From assembly GCF_044324875.1 (NCBI RefSeq), contig NZ_CP172185.1: a DNA stretch of 64,000 bases; one strand, 5' to 3'. The notes beneath the pieces were generated by a model, which was not told the origin of the DNA, made no database searches, and saw nothing but the letters and a program-made list of their open reading frames with translations. This stretch comes from Escherichia coli (GTDB lineage Bacteria > Pseudomonadota > Gammaproteobacteria > Enterobacterales > Enterobacteriaceae). A program made the translations under genes and the position numbers. Numbering within the stretch: position 1 is the first letter of the stretch; every line of letters begins with the position of its first letter. Positions 57,162 to 57,616 of this stretch are shown here, in pieces.

Positions 57162-57192
57162 CTCGCTGATTAAAATATCCAGGGAAGGAAAT

Positions 57193-57456
57193 ATGATCGA
57201 TCTGGAAAACCAGGAACGGGAGATTATCAATTTAATGTTCAGCCAGGGTATATCATGGCTAACCGCCGTGCGTATCAGGCATAAACTATCACTTGCTGAA
57301 GTAAGTAAAATGTTAGGTATCTCCATTAATTCTCTAATACAGATCGAAAAGACGGAACGGCTTAGTTCAAACATCAAAAGCAAAATGGCAGGAATTTATG
57401 GTTGTCCACCAGAGTTGCTGATATGCCCTTCCTGGATGACGGCTGAACATAAATGA
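57193..57456 (+). CDS. Small XRE/Cro-type helix-turn-helix protein (87 aa)
   Basis: Strong ribosome-binding site GGAAGGA before the ATG; HTH-like stretch LSLAEVSKMLGISINSLIQIEKTERLS; occupies the lplA-deoD interval. Confidence 0.6.
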   Translation: MIDLENQEREIINLMFSQGISWLTAVRIRHKLSLAEVSKMLGISINSLIQIEKTERLSSNIKSKMAGIYGCPPELLICPSWMTAEHK

Positions 57457-57557
57457 ATAGATTCGTGAATAGATACTTGAATGTATTTTATTTTCTATCC
57501 ATATGAAAAATAATAGTGAATCTATAAATCAGTTGCTATTGATGAATAGATACTAAA

Positions 57558-57590
57558 AAGCCGGAGCAGTCCCCCACTCCGGCTTAACAC
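57558..57590 (-). terminator. Rho-independent terminator of the deo operon (after deoD)
   Basis: gccggag-cagtccccca-ctccggc hairpin; on the minus strand it is followed by a T-run (the aaaaa at 57556-57560 on the + strand). Confidence 0.65.
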
Positions 57591-57616
57591 GACGTTCGCC
57601 TTTCAGCAAAACACAA

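Follow-up and report, generated by a model that had tools for sequence, protein, structure and literature searches.

The hipBA module is controlled by its own products: HipB, alone or as the HipB-HipA complex, binds several operators that overlap the hipBA promoter (PMC8262856). HipH, also known as YjjJ, is a HipA-family kinase with a fused helix-turn-helix (HTH) domain, encoded by a monocistronic gene, and Gerdes et al. 2021 proposed that this domain might bind DNA, though they mapped no site (PMC8262856). In Escherichia coli K-12, the gene yjjJ/hipH (443 aa, a 1332-bp coding sequence) separates lplA from deoD. Here, we describe the same site in a 64,000-nucleotide stretch of E. coli DNA (contig NZ_CP172185.1, called the window throughout), where lplA, with its stop at 57161, and the convergent, minus-strand deoD, ending at 57617, enclose a gap of 455 bp. 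As an earlier note on this DNA had recognised, yjjJ is gone from the gap (then put at about 450 bp), which holds an open reading frame (ORF) for an 87-aa HTH protein and a set of short direct repeats. The whole is best explained, with a probability of roughly 0.7, by the replacement of hipH with an HTH gene fragment, which would have left the hipH 5′ control region behind as orphan operators.

The exact repeat core, TGAATAGA, occurs on the plus strand at 57454-57461, 57466-57473 and 57543-57550, so that three of the five exact copies in the window (1.36 expected) fall within 97 nt, on one strand. Tandem Repeats Finder reported a period of 12 bp, and a third tandem unit at 57478-57485 departs from the core by two changes (TGAATGTA); the same unit reads TGAATAGA in K-12 and many other strains. 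The earlier note had counted three to four copies: the three exact cores stand, the third tandem unit had been overlooked, and a degenerate copy placed at 57515-57525 is found in no other allele or genus and lacks support as a unit because it lies inside a spacer whose sequence differs from allele to allele and from genus to genus. Read on the minus strand, the core becomes TCTATTCA, and the four units begin 11, 23, 35 and 100 nt before a retained ATG. Counted from this relic start codon, the cores at −11, −23 and −100 are exact and the unit at −35 is degenerate, the layout of a hipH array. Unit −35 reads TCTATTCA on the minus strand in K-12 and in L005-type alleles and TCCATTCA in many others. 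The motif may resemble the 'tor boxes' of TorR, but this likeness carries no weight in what follows.

The layout is that of the hipH upstream region. The K-12 deoD-hipH spacer aligns with window positions 57448-57616: the 35-nt tandem block is identical and, in K-12, abuts the hipH ATG, and the distal unit and the deoD terminator are identical as well, whereas over the ~60 nt between tandem block and distal unit the two alleles, HTH and hipH, are only ~50% identical. In E. albertii, Salmonella and Citrobacter, the sequence of this spacer is different again, while its core-to-core length stays at 64–65 nt. Measured from the A of the hipH ATG, the cores start at −100, −35, −23 and −11 in K-12, E. 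albertii and Salmonella, at −99, −35, −23 and −11 in Citrobacter, and at −99, −34, −22 and −10 in a fourth genus whose YjjJ is 69% identical; all these loci share the gene order deoD-hipH-lplA. Outside E. coli and E. albertii, the context of hipH was taken from contigs encoding YjjJ relatives and from a plasmid collection; a contig scan with YjjJ peptide patterns, which finds close relatives only, returned E. albertii alone. Among E. coli hipH carriers, 1303 of 1348 (~97%) have the exact tandem block. The repeats are very probably the control array of hipH.

Compared with the K-12 locus (PMC8262856), the window keeps the same site, with the tandem block, distal unit, start codon position and terminator identical or nearly so, and differs in having ~290 bp with an unrelated 87-codon ORF on the other strand instead of hipH. 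No hipH coding sequence lies downstream of the relic ATG, which opens a minus-strand ORF of 27 codons (MFSRHPGRAYQQLWWTTINSCHFAFDV, from 57450 down to 57367), antisense to the HTH gene; because this ORF alone follows the ATG, the array is orphaned. Gene order and the surviving hipH leader, start codon included, indicate that hipH occupied the site first and that its coding sequence was then replaced, the leader being left. An ancestral HTH gene with hipH as a later insertion had been considered on account of an HTH orthologue at the locus L020, in another genus; it was rejected on the same-locus hipH and array of Salmonella, Citrobacter, E. albertii and the fourth genus, and is also contradicted by the array that accompanies hipH paralogues elsewhere.

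These distant paralogues are 33–38% identical to YjjJ and lie in unrelated contexts, on plasmids or, in Proteus, in a record filed as a plasmid. On an E. coli plasmid of incompatibility group Y (IncY), the paralogue (35% identity; recognition helix VSQPTISRA) follows three 12-bp-spaced units, two of them exact TCTATTCA. Proteus mirabilis (ISQPTLSRA) has four tandem (T/C)CTATTCA units with a 12-bp period, and Aeromonas (ISQPTLSRT) has AATCCATTCAC as the proximal and AATCTATTTG as the distal motif. Three paralogues with a divergent recognition helix each have their own repeated motif in a similar layout: AATCTTCTCA, tandem plus proximal, in Vitreoscilla (VSVATLHRL), T(T/C)GTTTCA, tandem plus proximal, in Polaromonas (ISRATLMRA), and AATCGTTG(T/C)A at −98, −35 and −23 in Allochromatium (VDRATLLRW). 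In the chromosomal YjjJ orthologues of enterobacteria, the helix ISQATFSRL and the wing that follows it are among the best-conserved stretches. This co-occurrence of the motif with hipH and its covariation with the helix are the chief grounds for thinking that HipH reads the units through its own HTH domain; on sequence comparison, HipH is the favoured, if less firmly held, identity of the binder. In all, 45 plasmid records match YjjJ, 31 of them from Escherichia; those listed carry the ~35%-identical paralogue, except one that is 97.5% identical. The one plasmid inspected, p2017-03-3CC_3 (L033, IncY replicon), has TCTATTCA units upstream of position 1186.

Published data bear on the same region. 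Using systematic evolution of ligands by exponential enrichment (SELEX), Shimada et al. listed a site for the RNA-polymerase (RpoD) holoenzyme, along with H-NS, in the deoD-yjjJ spacer (PMC3946193), and they predicted a K-12 promoter, TTTTCA-18-TCTATT, whose −10 hexamer falls inside unit −35 (PMC3946193). Its counterpart on the window's minus strand is TTTTCA-18-TACATT, with TGAAAA conserved between both E. coli alleles; a better TTGACA hexamer was read by eye in Salmonella and at the locus L029. Reg-Seq found two repressor sites at the yjjJ promoter, −24..+18 (MarA) and +30..+45 (no factor assigned), counted from 4621716 (PMC7567609 and its supplements). With the MG1655 hipH ATG at 4621769, the unassigned site corresponds to −23..−8 (TCTATTCACGAATCTA) and spans units −23 and −11. 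The region assayed by Reg-Seq reportedly ended at +45; if so, the repressor site may extend further. The tandem units end only 3 nt short of the hipH ATG, so that the leader has no Shine-Dalgarno sequence. Induction of hipH that depends on cyclic di-GMP (c-di-GMP) works through the hipH promoter region (PMC11452175). A literature search found no paper mapping a HipH operator.

In hipH strains, the N-terminal winged-HTH domain of HipH would occupy the tandem units and repress its own weak promoter, keeping the toxin low; this self-repression is proposed on the grounds that the tandem units cover part of the −10 region and take up the rest of the leader as far as the ATG. A further, distal unit lies 65 nt upstream of the tandem ones. 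In an ancestor of the window allele, a short, oppositely oriented gene fragment of ~290 bp would have replaced the hipH coding sequence, leaving the 5′ control region: the start codon, the three tandem 12-bp units, the distal unit, the weak promoter and the deoD terminator. The units of the window strain would thereby have been orphaned, hipH being absent from the locus (the rest of the strain's genome was not searched), and the 87-aa protein would be made from the lplA transcript, independently of the repeats. The role of HipH as repressor, the present idleness of the relic and the order of events are all inferred.

Several observations weigh against this account. A consensus scan found no sigma-70 promoter in the spacer of the window, K-12 or E. 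albertii, so a strong sigma-70 promoter was rejected, and the hexamers are weak. Reg-Seq leaves the +30..+45 site without a factor, and another host repressor is possible. Chromatin immunoprecipitation with exonuclease treatment (ChIP-exo) of tagged YjjJ in K-12 gave no peaks (bioRxiv 2021.06.10.447994), although the tag, the expression or the conditions may be responsible. No obvious repeats were found upstream of the hipH paralogue of Diaphorobacter. Finally, an idle relic might decay faster: among HTH-allele genomes, every unit is intact in ~1782 and a single change, in unit −35, marks ~1922, and because the array is mostly intact in them it may retain some residual function. Within Escherichia HTH alleles, unit loss is seen in L007 and L012 and point changes in L016 and L018. 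The same 12-bp unit (window 57466-57477) is deleted in L007 and L012, two unrelated alleles, which is the expected outcome of slippage or recombination between tandem repeats.

The 87-aa protein bears out its earlier description as a Cro/C1-type HTH protein. It matches Pfam HTH_3 (PF01381) with E=5.2e-5 over residues 25-76 and the PADLOC profile HTH_VI with 2e-5, and its AlphaFold (AF2) model, with a predicted local distance difference test (pLDDT) score of 88.6, has helices at 22-29, 34-41, 45-54 and 59-69 and the five-helix Cro/C1 fold. The top Foldseek matches are all XRE-type regulators (C.BclI, CylR2, P22 c2 and SinR; TM 0.55–0.76, E ~0.02), and a sequence search against solved structures gave no significant match. 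The ribosome-binding site claimed for the ORF is likewise in place, GGAAGG lying 5-10 nt upstream of the start and the AAGGAAG core of the region being conserved. The whole interval is 100% identical in E. coli O158:H23 strain CFIAFB20140388, where RefSeq annotates the ORF as 'helix-turn-helix domain-containing protein' (WP_001589645.1); a literature search found no paper mentioning accessions of the small HTH protein.

Its relatives are few. The profile phrog_7241 matches with E=6e-9, at profile positions 54–121 of 122 only, that is, the C-terminal half, and the protein is 33% identical over 84 aa to Pmp14_0033 of Pasteurella phage Pmp14, a 122-aa phrog_7241 member whose gene directly follows one of the ParE_toxin family (ParE/RelE-type). 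The E. coli protein thus lacks a ~50-aa N-terminal part of the family, and a 10-residue, low-confidence tail runs into the hipH leader, up to the TGA in unit −11. A word-indexed search gave Escherichia and Shigella proteins only, and a full scan of 1.84 billion representatives returned 25 matches, of which only P0081 and P0085 are real additional relatives. P0081 (87 aa, 41% identical) comes from another genus, at the locus L020, whose lplA DNA is ~79% identical to Escherichia, Salmonella and Citrobacter alike; the array there has collapsed to a single degenerate unit beside the terminator, the product expected of recombination between direct repeats. P0085 (129 aa) matches phrog_7241 over its full length (1e-33) and has a weak RelB-like match at its N-terminus; at L021 (3147-6079), its gene lies beside one for a 761-aa DUF2357/PDDEXK_7 protein, near fructose phosphotransferase-system genes and with no toxin gene called upstream, and could likewise be solitary, here in surroundings that look defence-like. 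As judged from sequence, the 87-aa protein corresponds to the HTH domain of a family that has antitoxin-type members, N-terminally truncated and without a toxin partner.

No toxin gene adjoins it: its neighbours are lplA and deoD, and tblastn with the Pmp14 toxin was empty over 57000-57620. Nor does the protein classify as HipB, the HipB model not being among its NCBIfam matches and no Hip kinase adjoining it. A comparison with the N-terminal domain of YjjJ, recommended earlier, revealed no similarity (BLASTP E>=0.19, including YjjJ residues 1-100), and beyond the repeats there is no DNA or translated similarity. A derivation of the HTH ORF from hipH itself, whether through deletion or inversion or by a reading of the other strand, was rejected, since BLASTP, sensitive blastn and tblastn gave nothing significant; the best match pairs YjjJ residues 16-33 with minus-strand 57195-57248 at E=0.058, in a tiny search space and at the wrong position. 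The idea of an orphan antitoxin left after the loss of a toxin therefore survives in part: relatives include an antitoxin-type HTH protein beside a ParE/RelE-type toxin gene, but lack of similarity and apparent mutual exclusivity mean that the 87-aa protein is not the lost partner of YjjJ.

That exclusivity is apparent from allele counts. The small-HTH interval is present, at 92–100% identity, in 4057 of 5426 complete E. coli genomes and yjjJ/hipH in 1348; together they account for 5405 of the 5426, which fits two alleles that appear mutually exclusive at the locus. The small-HTH form is the majority allele, and K-12 has the minority form. In a third allele, from strain WB61 (L041 1449-1640), hipH is internally deleted and the first ~190 nt, the HTH-coding part, are kept; the Prokaryotic Genome Annotation Pipeline (PGAP) labels this remnant a partial 'transcriptional regulator', overlapping the lplA 3′ end. 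The small-HTH allele also occurs in divergent Escherichia contigs whose proteins are named E. marmotae or Escherichia sp. E1130, and the E. albertii type strain has the hipH allele. Between the window HTH allele and the E. marmotae-named one (L016), synonymous divergence (dS) is 0.037, against 0.25 for the adjacent lplA, which suggests that the small HTH segment recombined between lineages. Two Logan contigs, L009 and L010, were set aside as probable artefactual assemblies of damaged or converted reads: their whole locus is ~70% identical to E. coli, with no translation of the gene matching the indexed protein.

The repeats could instead be operators of the 87-aa protein, in the autoregulated or orphan-antitoxin module that the earlier note had envisaged: gene and motif copies lie side by side, the stop codon falls inside a unit, and HTH-allele genomes have preserved the array rather well. 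The units do look like operator sites, but all are downstream of the gene and none upstream; the same array, with the same spacing, precedes hipH in fetched stretches of chromosomes and plasmids that have no called or annotated small HTH gene; and the sole orthologous HTH locus outside Escherichia, with the 41%-identical protein, has one degenerate unit only. The array is, moreover, fully intact in the allele group in which codon 50 is a stop (Q50*, CAG>TAG, window 57340; L005, L006). This stop is present in 1691 of the 5426 genomes and CAG in 2036, so that ~42% of carriers have the stop, and PGAP labels the allele a pseudogene. In all likelihood, then, the protein does not use the repeats, and a self-regulating module has very little to recommend it. 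It is a more open matter, though still doubtful, whether the 87-codon ORF is a non-functional remnant throughout and the interval decaying debris of hipH loss. The missing N-terminal part, the tail into the hipH leader, the stop alleles and the frameshifted and internally deleted alleles that also occur all suit such a remnant under weak constraint; one of the deletions, in an E. coli genome (L011, GCA_037201855.1, 3001-3204; lplA 97% identical), removes ~60 nt and, with a rewritten 5′ part, leaves 67 aa. Against debris stand a ratio of nonsynonymous to synonymous substitution (dN/dS) below 1 in all comparisons (0.1–0.6, although ten-fold above the 0.01–0.07 of lplA and deoD), a frame that E. 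marmotae-like and further divergent Escherichia lineages retain intact, as does the 41%-identical P0081, a conserved ribosome-binding site and a confidently folded model. The ORF thus seems partly alive, under weak constraint, and much of the species can probably do without the protein.

A host factor other than HipH, such as the Reg-Seq repressor, H-NS or a c-di-GMP-responsive regulator, might bind the units in all strains, which would make the array functional here, for example in governing the relic promoter on the minus strand and the antisense transcripts that would run from it into the HTH gene and the 3′ end of lplA. The repressor without an assigned name, the H-NS listing (PMC3946193), the action of c-di-GMP via the hipH promoter region (PMC11452175), the empty YjjJ ChIP-exo, the fair preservation of the array in hipH-less genomes and the overlap of hipH and lplA transcripts in K-12, where the pair is listed as a convergent 'excludon' (PMC12288877), are all in keeping with it. 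We regard it as unlikely, because the motif accompanies plasmid hipH paralogues in unrelated hosts and changes with their recognition helix, and because the L020 array collapsed once hipH was gone. Action at the RNA level, with the units as a hipH-leader element for translation or stability instead of DNA operators, is far less probable still. It would make sense of three tandem units that leave the leader with no Shine-Dalgarno sequence; however, the distal unit precedes any plausible promoter and would escape transcription, the IncY and Proteus paralogues have their units at a greater distance from the ATG, and an Rfam search of the interval gave no match at E<=1. Chance, in AT-rich intergenic DNA, is practically negligible as an explanation: at a tolerance of two mismatches, the window is not enriched in the 11-mer relative to shuffled sequence, but the clustering of exact 8-mer cores on one strand, the 12-bp period and the conservation of their positions across four genera, when the spacer between them is not conserved, contradict it.

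A variant of the preferred reading, the replacement of hipH with its operators left behind, is that the orphan array is not idle; we consider this improbable. Without HipH, the relic promoter could be permanently derepressed, sending antisense RNA, together with the 27-codon ORF, over the HTH gene and on into the 3′ end of lplA. The array could also be a chromosomal landing pad or decoy for IncY-plasmid HipH paralogues with shared TCTATTCA operators, since a plasmid-borne HipH could meet the chromosomal array through the same units. A further possibility is recruitment of the small HTH protein to the sites, making an anti-hipH 'immunity' locus held with hipH in a long-lived polymorphism across Escherichia species.

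Among described systems, hipBA is the nearest in logic, sharing a Hip-kinase module, several operator-like motif copies over and around a promoter and an available HTH domain. HipB operators are palindromes, whereas the units here are repeated directly, every 12 bp, with one more copy placed distally; the HTH domain is fused to the kinase and is not of the XRE type, its binding being predicted, and in the window the kinase is gone, the operators having outlived the gene. For the 87-aa protein, the phage and prophage HTH proteins of phrog_7241, such as that of Pmp14 gene 0033, offer a homologous HTH domain in a small XRE-fold protein, but the E. coli one has neither the N-terminal part nor an adjacent toxin gene. 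Solitary antitoxins and decaying toxin-antitoxin remnants resemble it in the lack of a toxin partner, weak constraint and frequent pseudogenisation; unlike them, it sits where another toxin, hipH, was lost and is unrelated to the HTH domain of hipH. The controller (C) proteins of restriction-modification systems and Cro/C1 repressors are its closest solved folds (C.BclI, CylR2, P22 c2, SinR), yet there are no restriction-modification genes nearby and no C-box-like palindrome upstream.

Features of the lplA-deoD interval in window coordinates (units are named by the start of their core relative to the relic hipH ATG)
Feature	Position	Strand	Basis or remark
lplA (lipoate-protein ligase), left flank	56145..57161	+	ORF list and RefSeq annotation of identical strain
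Ribosome-binding region of HTH ORF, GGGAAGGAA	57181..57189	+	Sequence; AAGGAAG core conserved in aligned Escherichia alleles
87-aa XRE/Cro-C1-type HTH ORF	57193..57456	+	TGA stop 57454-57456 inside repeat unit −11
Relic hipH start codon, ATG (complement of CAT)	57448..57450	-	Aligned with K-12 hipH ATG; spacing to the four units as in K-12
Repeat unit −11, minus-strand core TCTATTCA	57454..57461	-	Position matches K-12, E. albertii, Salmonella, Citrobacter
Repeat unit −23, TCTATTCA	57466..57473	-	Inside Reg-Seq repressor site in K-12; deleted in alleles L007, L012
Repeat unit −35, degenerate, TACATTCA	57478..57485	-	Overlaps −10 hexamer predicted by Shimada et al.
Candidate relic hipH promoter: TTTTCA (57509-57504), 18 nt, TACATT (57485-57480)	57480..57509	-	Inferred
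Spacer, tandem units to distal unit, 57 nt, AT-rich	57486..57542		Length conserved, sequence variable
Distal repeat unit −100, TCTATTCA, adjoining deoD terminator	57543..57550	-	At −100/−99 in every chromosomal hipH locus examined
deoD intrinsic terminator hairpin	57558..57585	-	U-tract on minus strand only; both alleles keep it
deoD (purine nucleoside phosphorylase), right flank	57617..58336	-	ORF list and RefSeq annotation

On the flanks, a terminator scan identified a Rho-independent deoD terminator, with a 12-bp stem (57585-57558) followed by TTTTTAGT on the minus strand, and found no terminator-like site in the stretch from lplA to the HTH ORF; because no terminator lies in between, the HTH gene is probably co-transcribed with lplA and read from its transcript. 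In K-12, the lplA and hipH stop codons directly abut, with zero bases between them (L001 1669-1674). Two other hipH loci are expanded near the array: at L029 (1856-3000; YjjJ 69% identical), the deoD-hipH spacer is 1.1 kb long, with several repetitive extragenic palindromic (REP)-like repeats and a 163-aa ORF resembling a REP-associated transposase, and the four units remain at their usual distances from the ATG; in E. coli TB354 (L026, ~1900-2650), which has the hipH allele, an inserted copy of IS200C separates the distal unit from the deoD terminator.

The window feature itself is ordinary: an annotated, common allele in which a partly decaying small HTH gene stands beside leftover operators. 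A conserved array of hipH operators, as the repeats are identified here, seems undescribed. About three-quarters of complete E. coli genomes naturally lack hipH at the locus, so that the K-12 picture is a minority state, and work on HipH in persistence and c-di-GMP signalling uses hipH carriers such as K-12 and uropathogenic E. coli. The locus is also an instance of a regulatory region outliving its gene, with an unrelated gene fragment slotted in, and WB61 shows that hipH has been lost in other ways too. The comparison yields a candidate HipH operator, TCTATTCA, with a 12-bp period and a 3+1 layout, and a candidate identity for the Reg-Seq repressor at the yjjJ promoter; with it, the restraint of HipH, a toxin without an antitoxin, becomes directly testable.

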